In this document: piece after piece, positions 6,169 to 29,875 of the stretch
How the letters are laid out: every line of letters begins with the position of its first letter
Position numbering within the stretch: position 1 is the first letter of the stretch
From: Thermoanaerobaculia bacterium
GTDB taxonomy: Bacteria > Acidobacteriota > Thermoanaerobaculia > Multivoradales > JAIOJS01
Assembly: GCA_963806095.1 (NCBI GenBank)
Contig: CAWDWV010000005.1
Location: 64,283-128,282 of the forward strand
DNA: 64,000 bases
Direction of reading: 5' to 3'
Notes under the pieces: model-generated
What the model saw: only the letters and a program-made list of their open reading frames with translations
Databases searched by the model: none
Told to the model about the DNA's origin: nothing
Position numbers and translations under genes: made by a program

Positions 6169-6172
6169 GTGC

Positions 6173-7685: not shown

Positions 7686-8123
7686 CTACCCCTTGCGCGT
7701 GATCGTGACCGTGGCCTTCTGGCCTACCTTCGGCGCGTCGATTTCCACCCAGTCGCCGGTCTTGATGGTCGTGATCGGGTCCTGGTCCAGGCCGTCGATG
7801 GCGGGGATTCCACCGGCAATGGCTCCGCTGATGTCGATGTCGTGGACTTTCTGGCAGATGATGGCTGCAGGGCCGTGATGTGACTGCGTGCACTTGTAGT
7901 ACAGGCTGATGGCGCCGGTGGTGGAGCCCATCACCGTGGGATAGACCACGACCTTGCCGATCACGCTCTTGCCCTGGATGTCGGCGTCGGGCACGATGAC
8001 GATGCCGTCCTCGTTGCCGACGTAGTTGAACGCCCACCCCATCCGTTGGCGGTTCACCAGCGCTTCGCCGGCGGCCTTTCCTTTCGACCGGGCGATGCCG
8101 GTCAACACGATCTTTTGTTCCAT
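7686..8123 (-). CDS. acnX: Aconitase X small (swivel) subunit, DUF126 family
   Basis: 145 aa. RBS GAAGGAGGAG upstream. GKAAGEALV...GKVVVYPTVMGSTTGAISLYY...GPAAIICQKVHDIDISGAI matches the AcnX swivel-domain pattern. It lies directly upstream of the large-subunit gene. Confidence 0.8.
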   Translation of the reverse strand: MEQKIVLTGIARSKGKAAGEALVNRQRMGWAFNYVGNEDGIVIVPDADIQGKSVIGKVVVYPTVMGSTTGAISLYYKCTQSHHGPAAIICQKVHDIDISGAIAGGIPAIDGLDQDPITTIKTGDWVEIDAPKVGQKATVTITRKG

Positions 8124-8173
8124 GACATGCTCCTCCTTCGATCGACCCTACGTGCGGTCGGGATGGGGGGCTA

Positions 8174-8226
8174 TTGGACCTTTGGCCAAGCCATCGGATG
8201 GGACGAAGGTCCAATTCCTCGCCGCC
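8174..8226. promoter_or_regulatory. Recurrent palindromic motif, copy B: TTGGACCTTTGGCCAA (8174..8189) plus GAAGGTCCAATTCCTCGCCGCC (8205..8226)
   Basis: Lies in the divergent region between acnX (-) and the EAL gene (+). It shows the same left palindrome and right 21-mer as copy A, with a 22-nt instead of a 62-nt spacer between the ATTGGACCTT / AAGGTCCAAT arms. Confidence 0.4.
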
Positions 8227-8459
8227 GCGCTCACCGGTAGCTTGCGCGTACACGGTCTCGTCGGCGGAGTCGCGGCACGCGTCTCGCACGTCCGACAATG
8301 GAACCAAGAGTGCAGAGGCGCCACACGCCACCATCTCGGGAGCAGGCGGGCGGCGCTCTTCACCGGGTCGAAAGCCACCTGCCAGGCCCCCTCCCAACCG
8401 TCGAGACGGGGGACCGGCGCCGCCGGCGAGACCGCGCTCGACGCCACCGCTGACCACCC

Positions 8460-9206
8460 ATGGCGATAGCCGACGACGTCCGCACTGCCTTGGATCGCGG
8501 CGACCTGTTCGTCGAGTACCTGCCGACGGTGACCCTCGCCGACGACGCCTGCGTCGGCGCCGAGGCGCTGGTGCGCTGGCGGCGCGGCAACGTCGTCGTC
8601 ACGGCAGGCGACTTCATCCCGCAGATCGAGAACACGCCGCTGTCCGGAAAGATCACCTACTGGGTCATGGAGCGGGTGGCCGAGGAGCTGGGGAGCTGGC
8701 TCGACGCCAACCGCCAGGCATGGGTGAGCATCAACGTGCCGCCGGAGATCCTCGGCCGCGGCGGCCTCGAGTACGTCGCCATCCGCTCCGGGCTCCACGA
8801 TCGCGTCGCGCAGATCGTGCTCGAGGTCACCGAACGCGGCGTCCCGGACCGGCTGGGGCTCGACGCCCTCAACATGATGACCGAGCGCGGCGTGCGCGTG
8901 GCGCTCGACGACACCACGCTCTCGGGCACCAACCTGGCGCTGCTGGTCCGCGCCAAGCTCGACATGATCAAGCTCGACACCAAGGTGACCGCCCAGCTCG
9001 CGCCCGACCTGCCGCCGCCGGACTGGCTGGCGGGGCTGCAGGCGCTGGTCCGCCGCTCCTCGCTGCAGGTCGTCGCCGAGGGGGTCGAGACCGACTACCA
9101 GGCGAAGTGGTTGCGCGCGGCGGGGGTGCAGATGGCGCAGGGCTACCTCTTCTCCCGGCCGCTGCCGGCGCGGGGTTTCCAGAGGCTCTACGCCAACGGT
9201 CGCTGA
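8460..9206 (+). CDS. Stand-alone EAL-domain protein (c-di-GMP phosphodiesterase)
   Basis: GAEALVRW (EAL), VSINVPPE, LEVTERG, ALDDTTLSG, MIKLD, AEGVET and QGYLFSRP are all present in canonical order. There is no N-terminal sensor domain. Confidence 0.85.
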   Translation: MAIADDVRTALDRGDLFVEYLPTVTLADDACVGAEALVRWRRGNVVVTAGDFIPQIENTPLSGKITYWVMERVAEELGSWLDANRQAWVSINVPPEILGRGGLEYVAIRSGLHDRVAQIVLEVTERGVPDRLGLDALNMMTERGVRVALDDTTLSGTNLALLVRAKLDMIKLDTKVTAQLAPDLPPPDWLAGLQALVRRSSLQVVAEGVETDYQAKWLRAAGVQMAQGYLFSRPLPARGFQRLYANGR

Positions 9207-9273
9207 GAGAGAGCGGCTCCAGCAGGTACCATGGGCGCACGGTTCCGACACGCCGGGCCGAGCGAGGTGGAGA

Positions 9274-10326
9274 GTGGCCAAGCAGGGCAGCCGTGTGGTT
9301 TCCGTGGTCGACGACGACGCGTCGCTGCGGCGATCGCTTGCCCGCCTGCTCGGCTCGGCGGGCTGGGAGGTGGAGACGTTCGCCTCCGCCGAGGCGTTCC
9401 TCGCCGGCTCGCAGCGAGGCCGCGTCGGCTGCGTCCTGCTCGACCTGCACATGCCGGGCATGGGCGGCCTCGACCTGCTGCGCCGCCTGACCGCGACCGG
9501 TTGGGACCGGCGAGTGATCATCGTGACGGCGCACGGCGGCGACGGGCCCCGGCGGCGCTGCCTGCAGGCCGGCGCCGCGGCATTCCTCGAGAAGCCGGTT
9601 TCCAGCACGGCGCTCCTCGCCGCGGTGAGCTCGGCGATGTCCGCGCCCGGCGGCGAGCCGGTCGATGCGGCCGTCGATTCCAGCCTGCGGCACATCGAGC
9701 TCGCCGGCGGCACCCTCGGCATCCACCGTCACGTCTGCGCCTTCTTCAACGGCGCGGAGGAGGAGGACCGGCTCCTGCGTTCCTTCATCAAGGACGGCAT
9801 CGATGCCGGCGAGAAGGGGTTCCACATCGTCGACCCGGGGCGGCGCGACGACTACCTGACGCGGCTCCGCGAGGCGGGCGTCGACGTCGAGCGCACGTTG
9901 GCTACGGGTCAGCTCGAGGTGGTGCCGTGGCAGGAGGCTTACCTGCGCGGCGATCGCTTCGAGATGGACGCCATGCTCGAGCTGATCGAGGGGATCCTGG
10001 CGGAGGGCGCCGCCGAAGGCTACTCGCTCACCCGCCTCGTCGCACACATGGAATGGGCCTTGCTCGACAACCCGGGTGTCGACGACCTGCTCGAATACGA
10101 GGCCCGGCTCCACTACGTCCTCCCCAAGTACCACGATCCGGTGATCTGCACCTACGACCTGTCGCAATTCAACGCCAGCGTCGCCATCGACGTCATGCGC
10201 ACCCACCCGATGGTGATCGTCGGTGGCGTCCTGCAGGAGAACCCGTTCTTCGTGCCACCCGACCAGCTCCTGCTCGAGATCCGCGAGCGGCGCTCGGCTC
10301 GCAAGGCAGCCCACATCCCGGACTGA
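9274..10326 (+). CDS. Response regulator: receiver domain fused to a MEDS domain
   Basis: Receiver motifs are VVDDDAS, VLLDLHMPGMGG and FLEKP. The C-terminal ~190 aa (HVCAFFNGAEEEDRLLRSFIKDGIDAGEKGFHIV...RLVAHMEWAL...PVICTYDL) matches the MEDS (DcmR-like) pattern. Confidence 0.85.
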   Translation: MAKQGSRVVSVVDDDASLRRSLARLLGSAGWEVETFASAEAFLAGSQRGRVGCVLLDLHMPGMGGLDLLRRLTATGWDRRVIIVTAHGGDGPRRRCLQAGAAAFLEKPVSSTALLAAVSSAMSAPGGEPVDAAVDSSLRHIELAGGTLGIHRHVCAFFNGAEEEDRLLRSFIKDGIDAGEKGFHIVDPGRRDDYLTRLREAGVDVERTLATGQLEVVPWQEAYLRGDRFEMDAMLELIEGILAEGAAEGYSLTRLVAHMEWALLDNPGVDDLLEYEARLHYVLPKYHDPVICTYDLSQFNASVAIDVMRTHPMVIVGGVLQENPFFVPPDQLLLEIRERRSARKAAHIPD

Positions 10327-13246: not shown

Positions 13247-13259
13247 CAGGGTGCCGATC

Positions 13260-15446
13260 ATGAAAAGGCGCGCGGCGATCGCGGCGTGCGCGGGGTGGTT
13301 CCTGCTGCCGTTGCCGGCATGGCCGCAAGACGAAGTCGCGCCGGCGCCGCCGACGCGGCCGCGCATCGGCCTCGCCCTCGCCGGCGGCGGCGCCAGGGGC
13401 GCCGCCCACGTCGGCGTGCTCGAGATGCTGGAGGAGCTCCACGTGCCGGTGGACTACGTCGCCGGCACCAGCATGGGCGCCATCATCGGCGGCCTGTACG
13501 CCGGCGGGCTGTCCGCGGACGAGCTGCGCGAGGCCCTGCTGGCGATCGACTGGGCGGACGCCCTCTCCGACTCGCCGCGGCGCCAGGACCTCTCCTTCCG
13601 CCGCAAGGAGGACGACCGGCGATACCTCTTCGACCTCGAGGGCGGCATTCGCGGCAGCCGGCTGCGCTTCCCCTCCGGCCTGCGCTCCGGCCAGAAGCTC
13701 GGCTTCCTGCTGCAGCACCTCACCCTGGGCGCGGCGTCGACCGACGACTTCGACCGCCTGCCCATCCCCTTCCGCGCCGTGGCGACGGACATCCACACCG
13801 GTGACCCCGTCGTCCTCGGCCACGGCTCGCTGGCGACGGCGCTGCGCGCCAGCATGGCGATCCCCGGCGTCTTCACCGCCGTCGAGCTCGACGGGCGGAC
13901 GCTGGTCGACGGCGGCATCAGCAACAACCTGCCGGTGGACGTCGTCCGCGCCATGGGGGCCGACGTCGTCATCGCCGTCGACCTCCGGCTGCCGCCTCCC
14001 GAGGAGATCGCCAGCTACCTCCAGATCACCGGCCAGCTCACCCAGCTGCTGACGCAGAAGAACATGGAGGCTCGCCTCGCGCAAGCCGACGTCGTCATCC
14101 ACCCCGACGTGGACGGCTACACGACGATGGGCTTCGACAAGGTCGCCGAGCTGTGCGACCTCGGACGCCGCCAGGCCGAGCTCCAGGCCGACGAGCTGCG
14201 GCGCCTCGCCATCCCCGCCGAGGAGCACGCGCGGCTGCGCGCCGCGCAGCGCCGCGCCGCGCCACCGCCGCCGGTGATCCGCGCTATTCGCTTCGCCGGC
14301 AACGAGCGCGTCGACGAACGGGTGGTGCGCCCGCTGGTGCGGGTGGAGCTCGGCGAGCCGCTCGACTTCGCCGACCTCGAGAGCAGCCTGCTCGGCATCT
14401 ACGGGCTGGGCTACTTCCAGCAGGTCTCCTTCGCGCTCGCCGGCGAGGGGAGCGAACGTGAGCTGGTGATCGAGATGATGGAAAAGCCGTGGGGGCCGCA
14501 CTACCTGCGCGCCGGCATCGCCAGCAGCTCGGAGGCGACGGCGACCGAGGCGAGCTTCAACTTCCTCCTCAACCTGACCTCGGCGCCGCTCGACCGGCAC
14601 GGCGCCGAGCTGCGCAACGACTTGGTGCTGGGCTCCGAGCTCTCGCTCGTCAGCGAGCTGTACAAGCCGCTGAGCTTCGGCCGCAACTGGTTCGTCGCGC
14701 CGCGCGGCGGCGTGCGCTACCACGACGTGCCGTTCTTCGAGGACGGCCGGGAGATCGTCACCCTCGGCGTCCGCAACTTCGCGGCGGCGGTGGACCTCGG
14801 CTACCAGTTCGGCCAGTACGCCGAGGCCCGGCTCGGCGTACGTTCGGAGTGGGTGGACGCCAAGGTCAAGCGCGGCCAGGGCGAGCTCGCCGACGACAGC
14901 GTGCAGGCGGCAGGGTGGGAGACGCGATGGACGCTCGACCGGCTCGACGACGGCGGCATCCCGACCGTCGGTGCCTACGCGCAGCTCAGCGCCTTCCACG
15001 CCACGGACGCGCTGGGCTCGGACGAGGAGTACACGCAGGTGGCCCTCGACGTCGCCGACTGGCAGAGCGTCGGCCGCGGCGTCCTCTTCGGCTCGCTCTC
15101 GGGCGGCCTCAGCCCCGGCTCGGACCTGCCGATCTACGCCCAGTTCGACCTCGGCGGCCTGCTGTCGCTCTCCGGCTTCGCCGACCGCGAGCTGCTGGGG
15201 CAGGAGTACGGAGTGGCGCGCGCCGGCTACTACCATCGGCTCAACAAGCGGTCGCTCTACGCCGGCGGCTGGCTGGAGGCGGGCAACGTGTGGCCGAGCG
15301 GCGACGACGTCGGCACCAGCGACCTGATCACCGCCTTCACCGCCGCCCTGCTCCTCGACTCCAAGCTCGGGCCGGTGATCCTCGCCTACGGCCGCGCCGA
15401 GGGCGGCGACGACAAGCTCTACCTCTCGATCGGCCGCAGCCCGTGA
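13260..15446 (+). CDS. Patatin-like phospholipase fused to POTRA + Omp85 beta-barrel (PlpD-like, type Vd secretion architecture)
   Basis: Signal peptide MKRRAAIAACAGWFLLPLPAWPQ. Patatin motifs are GLALAGGGARGAAHVG, GTSMGA (GxSxG) and VDGGISNNLP (DGG). POTRA-like segment IRAIRFAGNERVDERVVRPLVRVELGEPLDFADLESSLLGIYGLGYF. A ~330-aa barrel region follows. An in-frame GTG at 13251 is an alternative start. Confidence 0.85.
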   Translation: MKRRAAIAACAGWFLLPLPAWPQDEVAPAPPTRPRIGLALAGGGARGAAHVGVLEMLEELHVPVDYVAGTSMGAIIGGLYAGGLSADELREALLAIDWADALSDSPRRQDLSFRRKEDDRRYLFDLEGGIRGSRLRFPSGLRSGQKLGFLLQHLTLGAASTDDFDRLPIPFRAVATDIHTGDPVVLGHGSLATALRASMAIPGVFTAVELDGRTLVDGGISNNLPVDVVRAMGADVVIAVDLRLPPPEEIASYLQITGQLTQLLTQKNMEARLAQADVVIHPDVDGYTTMGFDKVAELCDLGRRQAELQADELRRLAIPAEEHARLRAAQRRAAPPPPVIRAIRFAGNERVDERVVRPLVRVELGEPLDFADLESSLLGIYGLGYFQQVSFALAGEGSERELVIEMMEKPWGPHYLRAGIASSSEATATEASFNFLLNLTSAPLDRHGAELRNDLVLGSELSLVSELYKPLSFGRNWFVAPRGGVRYHDVPFFEDGREIVTLGVRNFAAAVDLGYQFGQYAEARLGVRSEWVDAKVKRGQGELADDSVQAAGWETRWTLDRLDDGGIPTVGAYAQLSAFHATDALGSDEEYTQVALDVADWQSVGRGVLFGSLSGGLSPGSDLPIYAQFDLGGLLSLSGFADRELLGQEYGVARAGYYHRLNKRSLYAGGWLEAGNVWPSGDDVGTSDLITAFTAALLLDSKLGPVILAYGRAEGGDDKLYLSIGRSP

Positions 15447-20040: not shown

Positions 20041-21814
20041 GCCGGCGGCCGAGACGGCCCAAGGCGCGCAGGCATTGGGACGCGACGGCGACGTCGCCGC
20101 GGCGCCGGCAGCGCGCCTGGCGGCGCTCGTCGTGCCGTCGCTCGTGCTCGCCGCCGGGGTGCTGCTGCTGGCGCTGTTCGAGCGGCCGCAGCTACCGCGA
20201 TACCGGCAGCAGGCCTTCCGGCTGCTGTTCGCGCGCGACGAGCCGGCGGGTGCGGCGCTGCTGCTCGCGCTGCTGGCGATCGCGGTGGCGGCGGCGATGC
20301 TGGCGGCGAGGCCGCTGCGACGCTGGGCGGAGCTGGTGCCGCGGCGGTTGGCCGAACGGCGAGCCCTCGTCGCGCTCGCGCTCACGGCGGCGCTGCTCCT
20401 CGCCGCCGGTGCGGTGACCGTTTACCAGGCGCGCCCGCTGGCGATGGACGAGCACGCGCACTGGTTCCAGGCGCGCGCCTTCGCCGCCGGCGAGCTCACC
20501 GGGCGCCTGCCGCCCGACCTGCTGCCACGGCTGGTGCCGCCGCGCCTGCTCTTCCCGTTCTTCGCCACCGATGCGGCAACCGGCACCGTCGCGTCGCGCT
20601 ACTGGCCGGGGTTCGCGCTGCTGCTGGTGCCGTTTACCTGGCTGCGGGCGCCCTGGCTGCTCGACCCGCTGCTCGGCGGCGCGGCGCTGCTGCTGCTCGC
20701 CACACTGGCGCGACGGTGGACGGGCGAAGCGGCGGCGGCGGGCTGGGCGGTGCTGCTCGCTCTCGCCTCGCCGGCGTTCACCGTCAACGCGCTGTCGTTC
20801 TACCCGCTCACCGCGCACCTCGCCCTCAACCTGGCGTGGATGGCGCTGCTGGTGGAAGGACGCGCCGAGAGTGGCGATCCGCGGGCGACGGCGACGAAGT
20901 CGACGTTGACGCTCACCGCGCAGCCGCGACGGCTGCTCGCCGCCGGCGCCGTCGGCGCGCTGGCGCTGGTGCTCCACAACCCGGTGCCGCACGCGGTGTT
21001 CGCCGTTCCCTGGCTCGCGGCGCTGCTGCGCCGCCGCGGCCGCCGCGCCGTCGCCTTCCTCGCGCTCGGCTACCTGCCGCTCGTCCTGCTGCTCGGCGTC
21101 GGCTGGCTGCCCTTCCGCGGTCCGCTCGCGAGCGGGGCCGCGGCGGGCGACGGCCTGGCGCCGCGTGTCCTCGACTTCCTCGCCCACGTCTTCACCCTTC
21201 CCGCGCCGCCGCTGCTCTACGCGCGCCTGCTCGCGCTCGGCGAGCTCGTCACCTGGGCGGCGCCGTTCCTGCCCGTGCTCGCCGTGCTCGGCTGGCGCGC
21301 CGCCCGCCGCGGCTCGCCGCTGCGCCTGCTCGCCGGCTCGGCGCTGGCGACGCTGCTGCTCTACTGCTTCATCCCCTTCGACCAGGGGCACGGCTGGGGC
21401 TACCGCTACTTCCACGCCGCCTGGTCGGCGCTGCCGCTGCTCGGCGCCGCGGCGCTGGTCGACCCGCGCGCCGCACGCTGGCGCGGCCCGGTGCTCGCCG
21501 CCGCGCTGCTCGCCATCCCCGCCGCCAGCGCCTTGCGCGCCCAACAAGTGCGCTCGTTCATCGTCGAGCAGCGCGCGCAGCTGCCGCCGCTGCCGCCGGC
21601 GTCACCAGGCGAGCGGCGCCTGTGCTTCGTCTCGCTCCAGGGCGGCGCCTACCGCGTCGACCTGCTGCAGAACGACCCTTTCCTGCGCGACCCGGTGACC
21701 TACCTCAGCAGCCACGGCTTCGAGCAGGACGCGGCGCTGGTCGCCCGCCGCTTCCCGGCGGCGACCCTCGCGTCGCGCGACTCCAACGGCAGCGTCTGGC
21801 TGCTGCCTAACTGA
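20030..21814 (+). CDS. GT-C-fold membrane glycosyltransferase-like protein (ArnT/PMT_2-like)
   Basis: The start overlaps the GT2 stop by 11 nt. It has >10 predicted TM helices and a first-loop acidic motif, LAMDEHAHWFQARAF (the DE motif typical of GT-C enzymes). The family call is an inference. Confidence 0.65.
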   Translation: MAAEPAAETAQGAQALGRDGDVAAAPAARLAALVVPSLVLAAGVLLLALFERPQLPRYRQQAFRLLFARDEPAGAALLLALLAIAVAAAMLAARPLRRWAELVPRRLAERRALVALALTAALLLAAGAVTVYQARPLAMDEHAHWFQARAFAAGELTGRLPPDLLPRLVPPRLLFPFFATDAATGTVASRYWPGFALLLVPFTWLRAPWLLDPLLGGAALLLLATLARRWTGEAAAAGWAVLLALASPAFTVNALSFYPLTAHLALNLAWMALLVEGRAESGDPRATATKSTLTLTAQPRRLLAAGAVGALALVLHNPVPHAVFAVPWLAALLRRRGRRAVAFLALGYLPLVLLLGVGWLPFRGPLASGAAAGDGLAPRVLDFLAHVFTLPAPPLLYARLLALGELVTWAAPFLPVLAVLGWRAARRGSPLRLLAGSALATLLLYCFIPFDQGHGWGYRYFHAAWSALPLLGAAALVDPRAARWRGPVLAAALLAIPAASALRAQQVRSFIVEQRAQLPPLPPASPGERRLCFVSLQGGAYRVDLLQNDPFLRDPVTYLSSHGFEQDAALVARRFPAATLASRDSNGSVWLLPN

Positions 21815-24800
21815 TGGGCTTGCGCAGCAGCACGCGGCCCATCATGCACTCGCCCAGCTCGCGGTAGCTCTCCCACTGCTCGTCGGTGAGGAACTGGTCG
21901 GCCGTCGGGTCGTTGGGGAAGGCCGGGTTGACCTCGGCGTAGCAGCGCACCTCGAGCGGCACGCCCGGCGGCACCGCGGCCTTGAGCAGCAGCAGCCAGC
22001 TCGGCCGCCGCCGCGTGCCCGAGGTGTAGGTGACGCGCGCTAGCGCCGCCGCGTACGGCCCGTTGCGCCGGATCTCCTGCCAGGGGCCGATGGCCTCGGG
22101 GTCGAGCCAGTCGCGCACCAGCGGCGGCACCACGATGCCGTGGTCCTCGAAGGCGTCCCACCCAGTCTTGCCCGCGGCGCGGCCGGGGGCCGGGTCGAGC
22201 CAGCGGCAGTGGGCGCCGAAGTCGGTCTCCGCCAAGCGGATCAGCGTCGAGAGGTCCTGGAACTGATACTTGGCGTCCTGCAGCGCGTCGATGGCGATCA
22301 TGAACGGCAGCCGGCGGCGGATCAGCTCGTACAGGCCGGTGCCTTCGAAGTGGCCGCCGTCGGAGAGGTACCAGAAGCGCTGCGACGGGCCGCCGTAGTA
22401 GGCCCGCCACTCGTCGAGCAGCATGCGCTGGGTGCGGAAGATGATGCTCGGCGCCTGGATCAGCCGCCGCCAGATGCCGGGCGGGTAGCGCCCCGGCCGC
22501 TGGCCGGCGCGGATGTGGGTGTCCCACCAGTAGCCGAGCCGCACGTTGAGCAGCCCCATCAGCAGCGACAGCGACAGCTTGGTGTTGCGCCCCGAGCCGG
22601 TGCTGAAGGCGGCGCCGGAGGTGGCGATCCACTGCGAGAGGCGCAGCGGCTCGACCTCGGCGGTGTCGAAGCCGCGCTTCTTGAGGACGTGGAAGGCGTT
22701 GGGGTCGTTGTTGGGGACGACCGCCTCGACGACGCTCTCGCCGGAAGCCACGCTCGCCGCCGAGCGGTCCCACAGCGCGGTGAAGCGGCGGCCGACGCTG
22801 ATCCCCTCCGGCCCGAGGGCCATCTGCAGCCCCTTGTCGCTCTTGAGGTGGCGGCCGGAGGCGGCGTCCGCCGTCTCGTTGACGCAGACGCCGACCAGGT
22901 GCAGCGGGCCGCCCTTGAGCTCGGGGTGGTAGGCCTCGAACTCGATGTCGTCGTCGGCGTCGGGCACCGACACTTCGGTGGGCGTCCCCTTGCCGTGCGG
23001 GTAGATGCGCTGCGGGTTGCTGGCGCCGAGGAAGGTGCGGGCGAGGCGGGCCGCGTAGGCCGACTGCAGCGACGAGAGGTTGAGGAAGCCGACGTCGCGG
23101 CCGAGCACCACCGAGACGGCGAAGGCGAGCCCGATGAGCCACCACCCGACGGTGGTGCTGGAGTCGAAGCTCCAGTGCACCAGCACGTCGAGGGCGAAGA
23201 GCAGGAAGCCGAGCACGCCGAGGGCGATGGCGAGGAGGAGCAGGTTCGAGATGCCGCCGCTGGGCGCCGCCGCTCCCGCCGGGGTCTTCGGCTTGGTGAG
23301 CTTGGTGACGGTGTCGCGGAAGAACGGCAGGACCCCCATCAGAGCGCCCGCCAGGCTGACGATCATCGGCCGCATCGTGTCGTCGGCGGTGGCGCGCGCC
23401 AGGGTGTCGAGGACCACCCACAACGTCGTGGCGACGAACACCAGCACGGCGCCGCCGGCGAGGTAGGTGAGCCGGGCGCGCAGGATGACCCCCTGCGTGC
23501 GGGGGTCGGTGCCCGGCTTCATGTCGAGGCCCGCCAGCAGCTCCCACACCCAGGCGAGCAGCAGGATGACGAGGCCGACGGCGCCGAGCAGCCGCAGGCC
23601 GGGGATCCCCAACGCCACCACGGCGCCGGCGAGCAGCACCACCCAGAGCAGCAGCGCGAACACCGCGTACGGGGGCCCGCCCTTCTTGCGCGGCGCCAGC
23701 CAGTAGGCGTAGAAGATCGGCAGCGCGAAGGCGAGGGCGACCGCCACCGGCAGCCACCACCAGGGCGACAGCTGCAGGCCGAGGACGGTGACCGGGTTGC
23801 CGGGGATTCCCGGCAGCCCGCCGAGCGGCGCGGCGAGCAGGCGCAGCAGGCCGAAGATGAAGACGAAGAAGGTGGCGATGACGAGCTGCACCGCCAGCAG
23901 GTTGCGCCAGATGGTGCCGAGGTTGGTCTTGAGGTCGGACAGCCCCTCGCCGGCAAGGTAGTTGACGTGCGTGCGCAGCCACTCGATCTCGGCCGAGTTG
24001 GAGTTGCGCAGCACGCGCTCGACGTAGGCCGGCTTGTCGGCGACGTCGGGAGCGACGCGGGTGAAGAGCCGGCCGAGGAAGCTGCCGATGTAGCCGCCGC
24101 CCGAGACGCTGGACATGAAGTCGACGGCGCGCAGGCGCCCCTTGGCGGCGAGCGCCTGCAGCGCGCCCAGGCAGTAGGTGGCGCTACGGATGCCGCCGCC
24201 GGAGAGCGCCAGCCCCACGGCGTCCTTGGGCAGCCGCCGCGGGTAGGGCGCCGGGCCGGGCGTGCCGGCCATGCCGGTGGCGGCGCCGTAGCCGCTGACC
24301 GAGCCCTCGGCGGTGGCAACACTCGAGCCCGGCGCGGCCGCGGTGGCGGCGCCTGTCGGATAGCCGCTCCTCCGCTGCTTGTCCTCCCAGCCGCCGCTGA
24401 TCAGCGCCGCCTGCCGGCGCTGCTGCACGGCGTGGGCTTCCTTCGCTTCCAGCCGGTCCGGGTATGTCGCGGAGTCGGCGATGATCGTCTCCGCCGCCTT
24501 CTCCGCCGCCATGAAGATGGGGGTGACGATGAAGTAGCCCGGGATCTCCGGGAAGATGGAGGCGTCGACGATGCGCAGGCCTTCGACGCCGTGCACGCGG
24601 AAGCGGCTGTCGAGCACGGCGCCGCGGTCCTTGAGCTCCGCCGCCGGGAACGGCCGCCAGGGATCGGACCCCATGCGGCAGGTGCCGTTGGCGTGGTGCC
24701 CCCAGGCCGAGTGGTGGATCCACTTGGCGACCTGCGAGTTGGTGACGTCCTTGCCCGGCTGCACCTCGCGGTCCATGAGCGGGATCGACGCGTTGATCTT

Positions 24801-26708
24801 GCGCACCAGCTCGACGGCGGCCTCGACCGCCGCGAGGTCCTTCTGCGCACCCGGCGTGTAGGCGCCGGTCAACGGGTCGCGGGCGAAGGAGTCGGTGTCG
24901 ATGTCGAGCTGCGCGAACGGCGAGGCGGAGCGCAGCTTCACCGTGCCGCTGTTGTGGGTGTAGGCCTTGAGGATCACCCAGGTCCAGATGTTGCGGTGGT
25001 CGATGGGCTCGCCGGGCGGCACCTGCTCGGGGTAGAGCAGCTGCGACGACCAGCCCCAGTAGTAGCCGCGGAAGGCCGCCGGGACGCCGAAGACGAAGAG
25101 GTCGGCCTCCGGCCCGTCGTGGTGGCCCGAGCGCGCCAGGAAGGCGATGGCGCCGCCGTTGGTGGCGTAGAGGCCGCCGCCGTCCTCGAGCCACTGCGTC
25201 AGGGCCGGGTCGGGCTGCTCACCCGGCTTGGGCGGCACCAGGGTGTCGCCGTCGAGGGTCTTGAACGGCTTCTTGGTCTGGCTGACGACGCCGACCTCGT
25301 AGCGGTCCTGCAGGTTCTTGCCGACGCCGGCGAGGTCGATGCCGTCCGCGACCTTCTTGCCGTCACGGTCGCGCAGGCCGTCGATGCCGTGCTTGGCGAG
25401 CTCGGCCTGGTCGCCGATGCCGGAGAGCATCAGCAGCTGCGGCGAGTTGTAGGTGCCGCCGGAGAGGATCACCTCGCTGCGCGCGAAGAGCTGCCGGCGT
25501 GGCGCGTCGTTGGACGCCGCTTCGGACTTGGAGAGCGGGCTCGGCTGGTAGAGGTGCTTGCCCTCGGCCACCTCGACGCCGATGGCGCGCGGCACCGCGG
25601 GCCGCCGCTTCTCGCCGGCGGCCGTGCCGTCGTCTTCGTCCTCGACCCCGGCCTCGAAGATCACCCGCGTCGCCAGCGCGCAGGTGACGATGGTGAGGCG
25701 GTCGGGGTAGTCGGTGGCGTTCTTGAGCAGCCACTCGCGCAGCCCGACGCGGCGCGTGCCGTCGGTGCCGATGGGGATGAGCTTGAGGTTGACGTCCGGC
25801 GCCGCCGGCCAGTCGCGGCGGTAGTTGGGGTCGAGGAAGCGCACCACGGAGAGCGTCACGATCGACTTGAGGAAGGCCTTGAAGCCCCCACCCTTGACCA
25901 GCAGCCACAAGACGGCGCGGGCCAGGAGGCTGATGAAGACCCAGTCGCTCTTGGCGATGGTGACGATCAGCAGCGGCGAGATGAAGCTCGTCTTCTGCCA
26001 GCCGGCTGTCCCGTGGCCGCCGTTGTCGAGCTGCTCGCTGGGGTTGAGGAAGGCGACGAGGGCGCGCCACCACGCCGCGATCTTGCCCAGCGCCTTGCGG
26101 AAGGCCGATTTGTAGGCCGAGTAGTAGAGCACCTGCTCGATCACCGCGAAGTAGCCCTGCATCGCCGACGGCTGCCAGCTGGCATCGCCGGTGAGCTCGG
26201 CGACGCGCTGCCAGTCGAGGTCGTTGGGCTTGGCGATGATCATCGCGTGGTGGTTCGTGCAGCCGCCGATGCCCGAAGCGCGCGGGTAGAAGATGCCGCC
26301 TTTGCCGCCGGTGGGCCAGTTGGGGTCCGGATTCGCCGACGGATCGTGCTCCGGGTTGTACTTGGGGTCCTTCTTCTGCTCCTCAGTGTCGGCGAAGTGC
26401 CGCACCGAGAAGCTCCAGCTCATCGGGTCGTCCTCGGAGGCGGCGCCGTAGTAGACGGGCACCTCGTAGACCTGGCGCAGCTTGGCCGCCGACTCCGCCG
26501 GCGCGTCGACGGTGCCGCACGGCCGGGCCTCGGTGGCGACGTCGGCGCCGGCCTCGAGCACCAGCACGCGCTTGCCGGATCGTGCGAGCCGCGCCGCCAG
26601 CACGCCGCCGCCGGCCCCCGAGCCGACGACGATGTAGTCGAACGGCGTCGTCTCGGGGTCCGCCGCCAGGGTGAGCAGGTCGGTGGTCGAGGCGTTCGCG
26701 GCGGCCAT
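21807..26708 (-). CDS. 1,633-aa fusion: GMC-family FAD oxidoreductase (N-terminal ~760 aa) + patatin-like lipase split by a polytopic membrane block
   Basis: ATG 26708 lies 2 nt after the upstream stop. The GMC part has DYIVVGSGAGGGVLAARLARSGKRVLVLEAG, YPRASGIGGCTNHHAMI, VILSGGTYNSPQLLMLSGIG and AWGHHANGTCRMG...LRIVDASIFPEIPG. The patatin part has GLALSGGGIRSA (Gly832 on), nucleophile elbow SVSGGGY (Ser869 = nt 24102..24104) and LSDGGHFEGTGLYE (Asp1450 = nt 22359..22361). About 8-10 hydrophobic helices lie between nt ~23090 and ~23920. No in-frame stop separates the two halves. The upstream 2.7 kb of track ORF 21807..29420 is off-frame read-through. Confidence 0.8.
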   Translation of the reverse strand: MAAANASTTDLLTLAADPETTPFDYIVVGSGAGGGVLAARLARSGKRVLVLEAGADVATEARPCGTVDAPAESAAKLRQVYEVPVYYGAASEDDPMSWSFSVRHFADTEEQKKDPKYNPEHDPSANPDPNWPTGGKGGIFYPRASGIGGCTNHHAMIIAKPNDLDWQRVAELTGDASWQPSAMQGYFAVIEQVLYYSAYKSAFRKALGKIAAWWRALVAFLNPSEQLDNGGHGTAGWQKTSFISPLLIVTIAKSDWVFISLLARAVLWLLVKGGGFKAFLKSIVTLSVVRFLDPNYRRDWPAAPDVNLKLIPIGTDGTRRVGLREWLLKNATDYPDRLTIVTCALATRVIFEAGVEDEDDGTAAGEKRRPAVPRAIGVEVAEGKHLYQPSPLSKSEAASNDAPRRQLFARSEVILSGGTYNSPQLLMLSGIGDQAELAKHGIDGLRDRDGKKVADGIDLAGVGKNLQDRYEVGVVSQTKKPFKTLDGDTLVPPKPGEQPDPALTQWLEDGGGLYATNGGAIAFLARSGHHDGPEADLFVFGVPAAFRGYYWGWSSQLLYPEQVPPGEPIDHRNIWTWVILKAYTHNSGTVKLRSASPFAQLDIDTDSFARDPLTGAYTPGAQKDLAAVEAAVELVRKINASIPLMDREVQPGKDVTNSQVAKWIHHSAWGHHANGTCRMGSDPWRPFPAAELKDRGAVLDSRFRVHGVEGLRIVDASIFPEIPGYFIVTPIFMAAEKAAETIIADSATYPDRLEAKEAHAVQQRRQAALISGGWEDKQRRSGYPTGAATAAAPGSSVATAEGSVSGYGAATGMAGTPGPAPYPRRLPKDAVGLALSGGGIRSATYCLGALQALAAKGRLRAVDFMSSVSGGGYIGSFLGRLFTRVAPDVADKPAYVERVLRNSNSAEIEWLRTHVNYLAGEGLSDLKTNLGTIWRNLLAVQLVIATFFVFIFGLLRLLAAPLGGLPGIPGNPVTVLGLQLSPWWWLPVAVALAFALPIFYAYWLAPRKKGGPPYAVFALLLWVVLLAGAVVALGIPGLRLLGAVGLVILLLAWVWELLAGLDMKPGTDPRTQGVILRARLTYLAGGAVLVFVATTLWVVLDTLARATADDTMRPMIVSLAGALMGVLPFFRDTVTKLTKPKTPAGAAAPSGGISNLLLLAIALGVLGFLLFALDVLVHWSFDSSTTVGWWLIGLAFAVSVVLGRDVGFLNLSSLQSAYAARLARTFLGASNPQRIYPHGKGTPTEVSVPDADDDIEFEAYHPELKGGPLHLVGVCVNETADAASGRHLKSDKGLQMALGPEGISVGRRFTALWDRSAASVASGESVVEAVVPNNDPNAFHVLKKRGFDTAEVEPLRLSQWIATSGAAFSTGSGRNTKLSLSLLMGLLNVRLGYWWDTHIRAGQRPGRYPPGIWRRLIQAPSIIFRTQRMLLDEWRAYYGGPSQRFWYLSDGGHFEGTGLYELIRRRLPFMIAIDALQDAKYQFQDLSTLIRLAETDFGAHCRWLDPAPGRAAGKTGWDAFEDHGIVVPPLVRDWLDPEAIGPWQEIRRNGPYAAALARVTYTSGTRRRPSWLLLLKAAVPPGVPLEVRCYAEVNPAFPNDPTADQFLTDEQWESYRELGECMMGRVLLRKPIS

Positions 26709-26710
26709 CG

Positions 26711-29700
26711 CTAGAGCGTCCTCAGGAACGCCTTGAGCTGCAGCTTCTCCTGGTCGCTGAGCCCCTCGGCGAACCAGTGCCCGCGGTCGAGCACGTAGTC
26801 GGGACACTTGCTCGCCTTGAGCATCGGCAGCGCCGCTTCCGCCTCGAACGCCTGCAGCGCCTTGGCGCCCTGGAAGTCGTGCTTGTGGATCGTCAGCAGG
26901 CCGCGGGCGAGGCCGGAGACGGCGCCGACGAGGTCGCCGACCGGCGCCTCGGGGTTGATGCTCCACAGCAGGTTGACCGTCATCCCCTCGGGGAAGGGCG
27001 CCAGCAGGGCGGCGGTGTTGATGCCGACGAGCTTGCCGCCGACGAAGAGGTGGAGCACGACGCCGACGACGAGCACGAGCACGGCGAGCACGTAGAGGAA
27101 CGACCTCCACGTCCACGGCGCCTTCTTGCTCAGCCACAGCCAGATGCCGAGCGCGACGAGGAGCAGCGCGATGGGCAGCAGCCAGAGCGTCCAGTAGATG
27201 GTGTAGACGCGGGTGACGACGAGGACGATGGCGATGAGCAGCGCCAGCAGCAGGTAGACGAAGCCGGCGGCGCGTGGACCGGCGAAGATGGCCAGCAGCA
27301 CCAGCCCCACGGCGAGGAGGATCCACAGCCAGAAGGTGAGGAAGCCGGTCCAGAACGAGCCCAGGATCCCCACCAGGATGGGCTTGATGAAGCCGGGGGC
27401 GAAGATGAGGCTGGTGTTGGCGGTGGCGCGGTAGATGAAGCCGGGGTCCCTGCCGGCGAGGTCGGGGCGCCGGTAGCGCAGGTCGCCGTCGCCGTGGCGC
27501 GGCGAGGCGACCCGCCGCTTCGACTTCCACAGCAGCTTGTCGATGGAGTCGTCGTAGGAGGCCAGGCGGCCGGCCACGGACGGGTCGTTGTTGAACAGGC
27601 CCAGCGTGTTGCCGTGCAGCAGCGGCGAAGTCGCCCAGATGCTGACCAGCGACGCCGGCCGGTAGTAGCCGGGGCCGCCCGCGGGCGGGTAGTAGAGGTC
27701 GTTGTTGCCCCACGAGTCGACGGGCTTGTTCGACCAGGGGTTGTAGAAGTGCACCGCCCCGACGGCAGGCAGCTCCTTGTAGGTGTCGGACGAGAAGTTG
27801 TCCCACACCTGGCCCTTCATGGCGTTGGTGCCCACCGAACGGGCGGAGTTGGTGCCCACCAGGGTGATGGGGATGCGGATGTCGGTGGACATGTAGTTGT
27901 TGGCCAGGAAGTCCTCGCCGCCGGGGTTGCTGGCGGCGAAGGCCTCGATGCGGCGGCGGTAGTCGGCGAAGGCCGGGCCCTTGCGGAACGCCTCCCAGTC
28001 GGCGTAGGTCTGCGGCAGCGTGTACATCGCCGGGGCGCCGGGGGCGGGCGGTCCCTTCGCCGCCCACTTGGCGTCGAAGCTCAGGGCGAACCCTTGCGGC
28101 TGCTTGCTGGAGTGGCAGATGGCGCAGTTCTGCAGGAAGACCTTGCGCCCTTCGGCGGCGAGCGGCGCCTCGCGGGCGATGACCTCGGCGCCTCCCGGCG
28201 CGTAGGCGAGCTTCATCGAGGTGGTGATCGGCACCTGCTGCGCCGCGCTGTCGTGGCTGAAGAACGCGTAGAGGTAGGGGATGCGGTACTCGTCGCCGGT
28301 GTTCCAGAACACCGACCAGTCGATCATGTCCTGCACGTTGAACGGCCGTTGCGGCTTGAAGCCGATGATGGCGTTGTGGGCGCGGAACCACTCTTCGGGG
28401 TAGGTGCCGATGTTGGCGTAGACGCGCGAGAGGGCGCCGAAGACGCCGACGCTGTCGGCGCCGTCGAGCAGCACGCGCGGCGTGATCCGCGGGTTGCTCT
28501 TCTGCGTCTGGCCCGGGACGGTGGGGACCACGGGGATGCGCCGGTTCCAGTCGCTCTGCTGCTCGGGCGGGTTGAGGTTGGCGCGGTGCAGCCGCGCCGG
28601 CACCTCCCAGATGTTGGTGATGGTGTTCGAGTTGTTGATCTGGTCGGTCGACACCAGCGAGGTGTCGATGGTGCCCGGCTGCTGGCTGTTGAGGAACTGG
28701 AAGAGGGCGTTGTTCTCGTGGGTGAGGTTGGCGAAGGCCTTGCTCGCCCGCCAGTACTGGTTGCCGATGGTGCTCGACAGGTTGGCCCACTCCGGCCGCT
28801 CGGGGTCGGCAGGAGGGTTCTGCGCGTGGAAGGCGATGTGGCAGAAACCGCACGACATGCTGACGCGGAACGGGCGGATGAGGTCGGGATCGGAGGCGAG
28901 GCGCACGTCCTGGTAGTAGGCGTCGCCGTTGAGCATCACCTGGCCCTGCCAGTAGCGGCGGGCGGTGGCGGCGTCCTTGGTGTTGCCGAAGAAGTCGGGG
29001 TTGGGCATCAGCCGCAGGCCGAGGATGCCGCTGGGGTAGCCGTAGACGGTGTAGTCGAGCCCGTCCTTGGGCAGCCGCGCCAGCACCGACTCGTAGAGCT
29101 TGGGGTCGCCGGGGGTGAAGAGCGGCTTCGGCGGGTGGTGGGGATCGGGCGGCGGGCCCTGCTGGAGCTGGCCCGTCTTGGGGTCGATGTCGGTGGGCGG
29201 CTGCTTGAGGATGATCTTGTCGCCGTCGGCGACGTCGATGTACAGACCGAGGATGCGGTTGTCCGGGTTGGTCTGCGGTCTCATGCCCGGCTGGTTGATC
29301 AGCCCGGCGGTCCTGAAGCGGCTGTAGCGCTGGCGCGAGTCGAGGAGGATGAGGAAGTCGGTGAGGCCGTAGCCTTCCTCCTGGAGCCAGCCCCAGAAGG
29401 CCTCGTTGCCCTCGCCCCACAGGATCCAGGTGTTCTGGCCGCGGATGCCGTTGCGGCCGCAGCCGAAGCAGTCGGGTTTCCCGTCGTCGATCTGGCCGGC
29501 GGAATTCGCCCAGTTGAACGGCCCCAGCGTGCCGTCCGCGCCGACCACTTGGTCGACCTCGCTGAAGACGTTGCGCGTCTCGGCGGGGAAGCAGTACTTG
29601 GTGCGCGGGGTCCTCGGCGTGCCGCGCAAGGTGTACGCGGTGGGCGGATTGGTCCCCGGTTTCGCCAGCGCCTCGTCCGGCGGCGCGCCGGGGTCCTGCT

Positions 29701-29875
29701 CGTTCCAGCCGTCACGCACGTCCGGCACGTGGCTCGCCGCCGGGTAGGGGTTTTCCTCGGCCTTGGCGTCCGCGCAGCCCAGCGCCACCAGGCACAGGGC
29801 GACGCACCCCAGCAGTCCGAGGATGGCTCGATTGCGGCGGGTCGACAGCAGTCCACTCCGGCTCGGCTCTCTCAT
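26711..29875 (-). CDS. Secreted di-haem c-type cytochrome (CCP/MauG/RoxA-superfamily-like) with an inserted block of ~4 TM helices
   Basis: ATG 29875 is preceded by GAGGGA. Signal/lipobox-like AILGLLGCVALCLVALGCADAK. Two CxxCH motifs are present: SMSCGFCHIAF (nt 28838..28852) and NCAICHSSK (nt 28112..28126). A hydrophobic block spans nt 27035..27397. The C-terminal tail DRGHWFAEGLSDQEKLQLKAFLRTL resembles the conserved C-terminus of di-haem peroxidase-type cytochromes. Confidence 0.75.
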   Translation of the reverse strand: MREPSRSGLLSTRRNRAILGLLGCVALCLVALGCADAKAEENPYPAASHVPDVRDGWNEQDPGAPPDEALAKPGTNPPTAYTLRGTPRTPRTKYCFPAETRNVFSEVDQVVGADGTLGPFNWANSAGQIDDGKPDCFGCGRNGIRGQNTWILWGEGNEAFWGWLQEEGYGLTDFLILLDSRQRYSRFRTAGLINQPGMRPQTNPDNRILGLYIDVADGDKIILKQPPTDIDPKTGQLQQGPPPDPHHPPKPLFTPGDPKLYESVLARLPKDGLDYTVYGYPSGILGLRLMPNPDFFGNTKDAATARRYWQGQVMLNGDAYYQDVRLASDPDLIRPFRVSMSCGFCHIAFHAQNPPADPERPEWANLSSTIGNQYWRASKAFANLTHENNALFQFLNSQQPGTIDTSLVSTDQINNSNTITNIWEVPARLHRANLNPPEQQSDWNRRIPVVPTVPGQTQKSNPRITPRVLLDGADSVGVFGALSRVYANIGTYPEEWFRAHNAIIGFKPQRPFNVQDMIDWSVFWNTGDEYRIPYLYAFFSHDSAAQQVPITTSMKLAYAPGGAEVIAREAPLAAEGRKVFLQNCAICHSSKQPQGFALSFDAKWAAKGPPAPGAPAMYTLPQTYADWEAFRKGPAFADYRRRIEAFAASNPGGEDFLANNYMSTDIRIPITLVGTNSARSVGTNAMKGQVWDNFSSDTYKELPAVGAVHFYNPWSNKPVDSWGNNDLYYPPAGGPGYYRPASLVSIWATSPLLHGNTLGLFNNDPSVAGRLASYDDSIDKLLWKSKRRVASPRHGDGDLRYRRPDLAGRDPGFIYRATANTSLIFAPGFIKPILVGILGSFWTGFLTFWLWILLAVGLVLLAIFAGPRAAGFVYLLLALLIAIVLVVTRVYTIYWTLWLLPIALLLVALGIWLWLSKKAPWTWRSFLYVLAVLVLVVGVVLHLFVGGKLVGINTAALLAPFPEGMTVNLLWSINPEAPVGDLVGAVSGLARGLLTIHKHDFQGAKALQAFEAEAALPMLKASKCPDYVLDRGHWFAEGLSDQEKLQLKAFLRTL

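Follow-up and report, generated by a model that had tools for sequence, protein, structure and literature searches.

A GMC flavoprotein fused to a predicted membrane-split patatin/cPLA2-like lipase in a Thermoanaerobaculia bacterium

The fusion gene and its coupled partner

The window analysed here is a stretch of 64,000 nucleotides from a Thermoanaerobaculia bacterium (Acidobacteriota). It carries a gene for a large fusion protein, in which a GMC flavoprotein is followed by a predicted lipase of the patatin/cPLA2 type. Reading from the N-terminus, the GMC domain gives way to a GGGIR loop (residues 837-841) and to Ser869 in SVSGG, after which come eight hydrophobic helices, a soluble region and finally Asp1450 in SDGGH (Table 1). 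The ATG of this gene, at 26708, lies 2 nt past the stop codon of the upstream gene and is preceded by a GAGGA box. The longest open reading frame, 21807..29420 (2537 aa), was rejected as an artefact of the high GC content; over its first 904 residues it reads as Arg/Pro-rich junk and overlaps the partner gene in another frame. Full-length homologues of the fusion protein (1530-1660 aa) are found in many phyla.

Table 1. Features of the fusion gene and the adjoining partner gene, numbered from the first letter of the window
Feature	Position	Strand	Basis or remark
Whole fusion gene, GMC flavoprotein and predicted membrane-split patatin/cPLA2-like lipase	21807..26708	-	Translation; 1633 aa, stop codon included
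GMC oxidoreductase domain, residues 23-745, with GSGAGGG as its N-terminal FAD motif and His671/His672 in GHHANGTCRMG	24474..26642	-	Pfam
N-terminal lipase half, residues 826-925, with one strand before the GGGIR oxyanion loop (24186..24200) and another before the SVSGG nucleophile elbow	23934..24233	-	Pfam Patatin, hhalign
Gly832 codon	24213..24215	-	Invariant in 61 homologues
Nucleophile Ser869 codon, in SVSGG	24102..24104	-	Invariant in 61 homologues
Predicted transmembrane block, 8 helices, residues 937-1206, inside the lipase domain	23091..23900	-	Hydropathy, AlphaFold2, positive-inside bias
Putative C-terminal lipase half, residues 1207-1633: strand FWYLS, then DGGH	21810..23090	-	AlphaFold2 strands and helices, pLDDT mostly 80-97
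Catalytic Asp1450 codon, in SDGGH	22359..22361	-	Invariant; after a predicted beta strand
Partner gene, 1054-aa lipoprotein, translationally coupled	26711..29875	-	Translation
Two CXXCH haem motifs of the partner	28838..28852 and 28112..28126	-	Invariant
Four-helix membrane insertion of the partner	27041..27397	-	Translation

Pfam recognizes the GMC domain, reporting GMC_oxred_N (5e-10), GMC_oxred_C (8e-21) and NAD_binding_8 (3e-6), i.e. the FAD fold together with the N- and C-terminal domains that characterize the family. It exceeds the usual length by about 200 residues. The usual second catalytic His/Asn position seems to be hydrophobic, judging by eye from one alignment, where PGYFIVTP has neither residue. 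The top PDB sequence match is the Chlorella fatty acid photodecarboxylase (6zh7/5ncc, E 1.7e-26), followed by aryl-alcohol oxidase and pyranose dehydrogenase. The photodecarboxylase shares the FAD fold and the GMC domains, and acts on free fatty acids. Its key active-site residues are Cys432 and Arg451 (Chlorella numbering). A phmmer alignment places Gly and Phe at these positions, and because neither residue is conserved we rejected membership of the photodecarboxylases.

In all fused loci whose upstream side can be read, the partner adjoins the fusion gene. Sinorhizobium and Paraburkholderia have orthologues of it, 47-54% identical, immediately before their fusion genes. AlphaFold2 models the partner with a pTM of 0.87, and a fold search of the PDB with this model returned no match. 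Pfam gave no CCP_MauG or RoxA-like match, and the NCBIfam CytoC_perox model matches at E 2e-4 and 20.6 bits, far below its cut-off of 150. A recognizable CCP/MauG fold was therefore set aside for this protein. Among the other neighbouring genes are lipid and glycan modifiers, namely a GT2 and a match resembling LPG_synthase_TM (32.5 bits, just below the Pfam cut-off of 33.4).

A predicted lipase domain divided by eight helices

The original prediction described a patatin dyad of Ser869 and Asp1450, some 580 residues apart, with the oxyanion loop starting from Gly832. Its numbering and coordinates for these three residues are exact on the translation, the separation is 581 residues, and the soluble region that it placed between the helices and the Asp motif is present. 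In an alignment of 61 homologues Ser869, Asp1450, G832, G837, G839 and R841 are invariant, as are G870 and G871. The first six of these remain conserved with 27 stand-alone relatives in the alignment. Furthermore, in each of the 78 loci scored from other species the Ser and the Asp lie 530-898 residues apart and a hydrophobic block is present. The split dyad is thus not a product of chance, given both the invariant residues and this recurrence.

The oxyanion and Asp motifs are those of the patatin/cPLA2 group. GGGIR has the form G-G-G-x-[RK] and a predicted strand lies just ahead of it. The nucleophile motif is [ST]-[VIA]-S-G-G, with Ser or Thr for the first Gly of G-x-S-x-G in all 78 loci, and hhalign places S-V-S-G-G on the G-t-S-x-G of canonical patatins. 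SDGGH fits D-G-[GA] after a strand, which is FWYLS in the AlphaFold2 model.

How well do profiles see these two halves? A profile alignment had been proposed along with the prediction, and it bears out one half of the domain. The N-terminal half matches canonical patatins (hhalign prob 96-98%), and among PDB sequences ExoU and VipD match it weakly; the C-terminal half, on the other hand, matches in the DGG segment alone. When the C-terminal module is scanned by itself, Pfam Patatin (PF01734) scores 28.2 bits, barely above its cut-off of 27.7, and of the 191 profile positions no more than 1-66 are covered; the match is not reported in a scan of the full-length 1633-aa protein. Compared with 23 canonical patatins from related genomes, the C-terminal half aligns DGG on DGG, in register, at P 0.036 and an hhalign prob of 1.4%. 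Its 17-sequence profile found nothing among all PDB chains at E up to 10, and Pfam at the same E found nothing relevant for this half. Sequence profiles, then, see the N-terminal half alone as patatin, and the C-terminal half is putatively assigned by its DGG motif, the invariance of this motif and the AlphaFold2 model. It is 50-57% identical across phyla, and the soluble lipase halves (50-65% identity) are conserved as much as the GMC domain.

A structure prediction had also been suggested, as a check on whether the two halves form one fold. AlphaFold2 returns one confident body for residues 801-1633 (pLDDT 86, pTM 0.84), with strands ahead of the GGG loop, of Ser and of Asp. Foldseek ranks cPLA2 delta (5iz5) and cPLA2 alpha (1cjy) first in the PDB, with prob 1.00 and 0.99 and about 850 alignment columns, but weak E-values of 0.016-0.025 and TM-scores of about 0.3. 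PlpD, VipD, ExoU and patatin rank lower.

The seven hydrophobic strings quoted in the prediction are all present in the translated protein. It had estimated some 8-10 helices; the hydrophobic block is real, but the count is eight, whether by hydropathy of the protein, by hydropathy averaged over the 61 homologues or by DSSP on the AlphaFold2 model. The helices span residues 937-958, 984-1004, 1014-1035, 1040-1060, 1082-1103, 1113-1131, 1155-1178 and 1187-1206. An even count is needed to bring both halves to one side of the membrane, and eight is even. Lys and Arg number 13.1 on the inferred inner loops, which adjoin the catalytic halves, versus 3.0 on the outer loops, and inside exceeds outside in each of the 61 sequences. 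The GMC N-terminus of the fusion protein has no signal peptide and no twin-arginine motif. The even count, the charge bias and the lack of a signal peptide together place both catalytic halves, by predicted topology, on the cytoplasmic side of the membrane. A crude automatic counter, run on 78 loci, is noisy (eight helices in 35, mode 8, range 6-12), and the parity claim is limited to the 61 aligned sequences. Two outcomes would have told against the prediction, an odd helix count and a model whose halves do not share one fold, and neither was obtained.

The split domain is, by prediction from sequence and model, a real membrane-embedded variant of the known patatin/cPLA2 lipase fold. The prediction took 150-200 residues to be the canonical Ser-Asp distance. 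This holds for patatin, PlpD and ExoU, where about 140-215 residues separate the two and the domain is soluble or secreted, but not for cPLA2 alpha, the nearest structural relative, whose cap puts about 320 residues between Ser228 and Asp549. Because a large cap already sits between Ser and Asp in cPLA2 alpha, the helix block can be seen as a known insertion site taken to an extreme and embedded in the membrane. The prediction had put the insertion in the lid region, where it might gate the active site.

The predicted likeness to Group IV cPLA2 (alpha 1cjy; delta 5iz5/5izr/5ixc) extends to the GGGxR oxyanion loop with its conserved Arg, the Ser-Asp dyad, the large insertion between them, the long stretch after Asp and, as proposed here, interfacial action on membrane lipids. 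However, the insertion is a soluble cap in cPLA2 and a transmembrane bundle of eight helices here, and the nucleophile motif is G-L-S-G-S there and [ST]-x-S-G-G here. Those enzymes bind the membrane transiently, whereas this one would do so permanently, and it is bacterial and GMC-fused. Pfam PLA2_B matches the C-terminal module at E 0.35 over just 44 residues, and no Pfam scan found a C2 domain. The fusion lipase thus appears to resemble cPLA2 in fold and layout, and is not a member of Group IV cPLA2 proper.

Canonical patatins (potato patatin 1oxw/4pka; PlpD 5fqu/5fya; ExoU; VipD) share the N-terminal motifs and the DGG after a strand, but have no dyad 581 residues apart with membrane in between. 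The window itself illustrates this contrast, as a canonical PlpD-type protein at 13251..15443 matches the full Pfam Patatin profile (2e-33). Esterases of the PNPLA6/NTE type also act on the cytoplasmic face of membranes and have an N-terminal transmembrane anchor. Like them, the fusion lipase is predicted to be a cytoplasmic-face patatin esterase held by transmembrane helices, but in PNPLA6/NTE the helices lie outside the catalytic domain and here they lie inside it. PADLOC models, which include the CBASS patatins CapV and CapE, match neither the lipase module, nor the partner, nor one stand-alone relative, and membership of the anti-phage defence patatins was discarded for this reason.

Proposed function and alternatives

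We consider it probable that the protein is an inner-membrane bifunctional lipid enzyme, in which a cytoplasmic split Ser-Asp acyl hydrolase and a GMC flavoprotein work with the di-haem partner. The C-terminal 800 residues would be an acyl hydrolase of the patatin/cPLA2 fold, whose alpha/beta core is predicted to be interrupted by the eight-helix bundle about 55 residues past the nucleophile helix. With an even count and a start on the inside, the two halves (GGGIR/Ser869 and Asp1450) would both end up at the cytoplasmic face and come together there as one membrane-seated domain. The active site may then take acyl esters of inner-leaflet lipids straight from the bilayer, and the fused flavoprotein would oxidize either what is released or what is left of the lipid. 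The coupled di-haem lipoprotein would work with the lipase-flavoprotein, its putative periplasmic domain tied to the membrane by the four inserted helices. The strict co-occurrence of the two proteins suggests that this four-helix bundle probably docks on the eight-helix bundle of the lipase.

Does the helix block do more than this? It could be a working lipid conduit, scramblase- or extractor-like or signal-transmitting, that feeds the lipase or couples it to the periplasm via the helices of the partner. Such a role would extend the main proposal, and several observations are consistent with it. The acidic D1101, which lies at the outer end of TM5, is conserved along with S981, P997 and W1003 in both the fused and the stand-alone subfamilies, and D1174 and an SPWWW segment are invariant within the fused group. 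The partner has acquired a four-helix insertion of its own, as a homologue without it exists in locus L069, and the fusion and partner genes are strictly linked. That said, conservation in the protein is lowest in the helix block (30-37% identity versus 50-65% for the soluble halves), Foldseek finds no significant match of the model to any transporter (prob 0.08 or less) and the stand-alone members have no conserved neighbour. A conduit is possible, though we lean against it. A still wider scheme seems more doubtful: the cytoplasmic cPLA2-like lipase-flavoprotein and the periplasmic di-haem protein, each with an inserted bundle (eight plus four helices), would form one trans-membrane machine that extracts and cleaves bilayer lipid and oxidizes the products on both faces. 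The split lipases would then be a large and unrecognized class of polytopic membrane phospholipases, serving as a platform for GMC, P450 and class-3 lipase domains. If true, the machine would give bacteria a membrane-integrated equivalent of the eukaryotic pathway that leads from phospholipase A2 through oxygenases to oxidized fatty-acid products.

The remaining alternatives concern the reaction, the activity and the orientation of the lipase. Enzymes of the patatin/cPLA2 fold (PNPLA, cPLA2) are known to have transacylase and lysophospholipase activities, and with the GT2 and the sub-threshold LPG_synthase_TM-like match nearby the Ser-Asp domain might remodel lipids as an acyltransferase or transacylase. 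Sequence does not separate transfer from hydrolysis, but both Arg841 and the motifs match hydrolytic enzymes of the cPLA2 type, and we think a transferase unlikely. It is far less plausible that the lipase halves have decayed to a relic or serve as a non-catalytic scaffold, with the protein simply a membrane-anchored GMC dehydrogenase. The database names of the homologues do point that way, since they read 'GMC oxidoreductase' or 'choline dehydrogenase-like flavoprotein' only, as does the marginal Pfam Patatin match; decay is hard to square, however, with catalytic Ser, Asp and oxyanion residues that are invariant across phyla, with lipase halves as conserved as the GMC domain, or with thousands of stand-alone relatives that have no GMC domain at all. 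An inverted topology, where periplasmic catalytic domains pass electrons from the flavoprotein directly to the di-haem protein, would suit a partner that is a haem c lipoprotein, as haem c is attached in the periplasm, and complexes of periplasmic FAD dehydrogenases with cytochrome c are known. The absence of a signal or Tat motif at the N-terminus, the concentration of Lys and Arg on the loops by the catalytic halves in all 61 sequences and the C-terminally fused P450 variants, likewise without export signals, make this orientation very improbable.

Patatin and cPLA2 lipases are textbook interfacial enzymes, soluble proteins that dock on membranes transiently. A catalytic domain interrupted by a polytopic bundle would make the lipase a permanent component of the bilayer. 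One characterized member would show how an alpha/beta hydrolase-like fold tolerates membrane insertion, and might uncover how bacteria turn over or oxidize membrane lipids by a route tied to a new haem protein.

Distribution and fusion partners

The split lipase module forms 13,753 clusters at 50% identity and occurs in at least 579 species, a family size that the prediction, which considered this gene by itself, did not mention. Its members go by the names 'GMC oxidoreductase' or 'hypothetical' only, and a single characterized member would annotate thousands of genes. No model in Pfam, NCBIfam or PADLOC covers the module, nor does NCBIfam have one for the stand-alone relatives, and a full-text literature search returned no study of a patatin split by the membrane or of one fused to a GMC domain. 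The membrane-split lipases are apparently an undescribed family.

The module occurs on its own, or as part of a fusion with a GMC, a P450 or a class-3 lipase domain. ORF clustering at 27 loci showed no conserved neighbour for the stand-alone lipases. The GMC-linked lipases form one clade (SH-aLRT 100), and an unfused pair of GMC and lipase genes (L055) lies at its base, where the branching is not resolved. The other fusion partners, P450 and class-3 lipase, are lipid enzymes too, which we count in favour of a lipid enzyme. The fused P450s have a distant likeness to the CYP51, CYP4 and BM3 classes (E about 1e-10), and with such a likeness an H2O2-using peroxygenase of the CYP152 type is unsupported for these variants. 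Split lipases were found in Pseudomonadota, Verrucomicrobiota, Acidobacteriota, Myxococcota, Gemmatimonadota and Planctomycetota, and the culturable carriers include Sinorhizobium, Rhizobium, Paraburkholderia and Pseudomonas.

Dyad spacing and membrane topology

The fusion gene lies in a window with a G+C content of about 72%. Its ATG, preceded by a GAGGA box, is 2 nt past the upstream gene's stop. The longest open reading frame that covers this site (21807..29420, 2537 aa) is an artefact, as its first 904 residues are an Arg/Pro-rich, out-of-frame translation. The original prediction described a catalytic dyad about 580 residues apart with membrane helices in between. This is what we find: its numbering of Gly832, Ser869 and Asp1450 is exact on the translation, the dyad residues are 581 residues apart, and eight hydrophobic helices separate them. 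These are seen in the hydropathy of the protein itself, in the mean hydropathy of 61 homologues, and as eight long helices in an AlphaFold2 model.

Coordinates of the split lipase, its partner and related loci
Feature	Nucleotides	Strand	Residues	Detail
Fusion gene	21807..26708	-	1633 aa	start ATG 26708, end 21807 (translation)
GMC flavoprotein	24474..26642	-	23-745	Pfam GMC_oxred_N, GMC_oxred_C, NAD_binding_8
Gly832	24213..24215	-	832	translation
GGGIR oxyanion loop		-	837-841	translation
Ser869 in SVSGG	24102..24104	-	869	translation
Eight hydrophobic helices	23091..23900	-		between Ser869 and Asp1450
Helices 1-4			937-958, 984-1004, 1014-1035, 1040-1060	
Helices 5-8			1082-1103, 1113-1131, 1155-1178, 1187-1206	
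Asp1450 in SDGGH	22359..22361	-	1450	translation
Partner gene	26711..29875	-	1054 aa	lipoprotein, lipobox LVALGC
Partner four-helix membrane block	27041..27397	-		long helices inserted ahead of conserved C-terminal tail
Class-3-lipase paralogue	G000:C2 about 3911169-3914960 (L116:170-3961)			Pfam Lipase_3 1.8e-19, GHSLG
Class-3-lipase paralogue motifs			406; 438; 1063	GGGIR at 406; TVSGG, Ser438; DGG, Asp1063
Separate GMC and split-lipase genes	L055:5409-7715 and 7798-10230			
RoxA-like cytochrome c genes	L069:3756-5675 and 5787-7274			

An odd number of helices would place Ser and Asp on opposite sides of the membrane, whereas eight is even. Lysines and arginines were counted in the loops of 61 aligned sequences, with the N-terminus placed inside; their mean is 13.1 for inside loops versus 3.0 for outside loops, and inside exceeds outside in every sequence. 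A search of the GMC N-terminus found neither a signal nor a twin-arginine motif. Taken together, these sequence features support a cytoplasmic placement for both lipase halves and the flavoprotein, which would lie at the membrane's inner surface. The earlier suggestion that helices inserted in the lid region would hold the active site at the bilayer surface, and could gate it, is borne out in part: in the same-side topology, through helix number and charge bias, and, as a prediction, in a single fold. Four residues of the membrane block, Asp1101 (nt 23406..23408) at the outer end of helix 5, Ser981, Pro997 and Trp1003, are conserved both in the fused subfamily and in the stand-alone one, i.e. 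split lipases without a GMC domain.

Patatin-like identity of the two halves

A Pfam scan of the full-length fusion protein gave no Patatin match. On the lipase module alone (residues 801-1633) Patatin scores 28.2 bits against a cut-off of 27.7, covering only profile positions 1-66 of 191; in a PDB sequence search this segment weakly resembles ExoU and VipD. Against a profile built from 23 canonical patatin domains of related genomes, the N-half (residues 826-925) matches with a probability of 96-98% (E 1e-9 to 3e-12). The sole alignment of the C-half (residues 1207-1633), LSDGGHF...IIAVD on vDGGv...i.a.., has the correct register and is not significant (P 0.036), and a C-half profile has zero matches among PDB chains. 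The C-half is thus unrecognised by sequence profiles, therefore its assignment comes from conservation, a structure model and a fold search.

Ser869, Asp1450, G832, G837, G839 and R841 do not vary among the 61 homologues, and remain conserved with 27 stand-alone relatives added. An AlphaFold2 model of residues 801-1633, made with 61 sequences (pLDDT 86, pTM 0.84), has a strand ahead of the GGG loop, of the Ser and (FWYLS) of the Asp. Both halves are predicted to form one lipase fold facing the cytoplasm, rather than two separate ones. The top PDB match of this model in the fold search is human cPLA2 delta (5iz5, probability 1.00, E 0.016, 857 columns); cPLA2 alpha (1cjy, probability 0.99) is also among the best, with PlpD, VipD, ExoU and potato patatin lower. 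The E-values are modest, as are the TM-scores (about 0.3), which is expected because the targets have nothing equivalent to the 280 residues of membrane helices. The split lipase is predicted to work like a cPLA2/patatin lipase, but falls outside the cPLA2 family proper, as it has neither a PLA2_B match nor a C2 domain. The cPLA2 cap likewise sits between Ser and Asp, and is the nearest analogue of the eight-helix block.

The window also offers an internal contrast: 6 kb away from the split lipase it encodes a patatin-POTRA-Omp85 protein of the canonical PlpD type (13251..15443, + strand), which matches the full Patatin profile (Pfam, 2e-33). In one Paraburkholderia locus a canonical 383-aa patatin gene (L002:12750-13901) directly follows the GMC-split-lipase gene.

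Distribution and fusion history

The split lipase is a real and very widespread architecture, for which our searches turned up neither a curated model nor a published study. With residues 801-1633 as query, an exhaustive HMMER search of 1.84 billion cluster representatives matched 13,753 proteins at E <= 1e-3, of which 2,663 also pass E <= 1e-30. Many of the matches, 850-950 aa in length, lack a GMC domain, their alignment beginning at the oxyanion loop and running on to the C-terminus. These stand-alone relatives are annotated at source as 'hypothetical protein', and Pfam gives at most a sub-threshold patatin start; NCBIfam and PADLOC models match neither them nor the split module. More than 2,000 full-length GMC fusions, annotated just 'GMC oxidoreductase', came up in a word-indexed search, among them proteins of Sinorhizobium meliloti, Rhizobium, Mesorhizobium and Paraburkholderia. 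Full-text literature searches yielded no account of a patatin split by a membrane block, nor of one fused to a GMC domain.

Scanning a single genome for each species confirmed at least 579 loci. Among 78 scored loci the Ser-Asp spacing is 530-898 residues, and all carry the nucleophile motif [ST]-[VIA]-S-G-G. Some members (P0020 and relatives; loci L005 and L037) have an additional P450 C-terminal to the lipase, for about 2,010 aa. This P450 resembles CYP51, CYP4 and BM3 only distantly (E about 1e-10). A distant paralogue in the window's own genome has the same split module fused to a class-3 lipase.

In a tree of lipase modules, all 52 GMC-linked sequences group in a single clade (SH-aLRT 100). 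At its base, where branching is unresolved, is a Chthoniobacteraceae locus (L055) that encodes the GMC flavoprotein and the split lipase in two neighbouring genes and has the di-haem gene upstream of them. By the gene-fusion argument, the clade and this locus imply that flavoprotein and lipase probably act together. The window's fusion protein and its relative from Thermoanaerobaculia (L003, 68% identity) fall within sequences from Pseudomonadota, which suggests that the two-gene module may have been horizontally transferred.

The di-haem partner and the flavoprotein

The partner lipoprotein has two invariant CXXCH motifs. Its orthologues in Sinorhizobium and Paraburkholderia (47-54% identity) are immediately upstream of the fusion gene, and wherever the upstream flank of a GMC-linked locus can be read, the partner is likewise there, one arrangement being divergent. 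Stand-alone split lipases lack it, and a comparison of their neighbours found none conserved. In Horticoccus a 733-aa partner homologue (L069:973-3174), beside RoxA-like cytochrome genes, is entirely without the helix block, which suggests that the partner's helices, too, were inserted into a protein that was soluble and periplasmic. Its AlphaFold2 model is confident (pTM 0.87) and has no fold match in the PDB; the sole support for a peroxidase-like ancestry is a sub-threshold NCBIfam di-haem peroxidase match. In two Opitutaceae loci (L069, L082) two RoxA-like cytochrome c genes lie between a soluble partner homologue and a stand-alone lipase.

The mechanism we propose goes beyond the motifs, conservation, helices, charge bias and gene linkage observed here: the lipase would remove acyl esters of inner-leaflet lipids directly out of the bilayer, the flavoprotein would act on a product, and the partner would dock via helix-helix contacts.

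The best PDB sequence match of the GMC domain is fatty acid photodecarboxylase (E 1.7e-26). We do not claim this chemistry, because Gly and Phe align with the photodecarboxylase's key Cys432 and Arg451. His671/His672 instead point to the alcohol oxidation common in GMC enzymes, but the position where a second catalytic residue is usual appears to be hydrophobic. The domain is about 200 residues over the usual length, and its residues 245-275 are a hydrophobic or amphipathic stretch.
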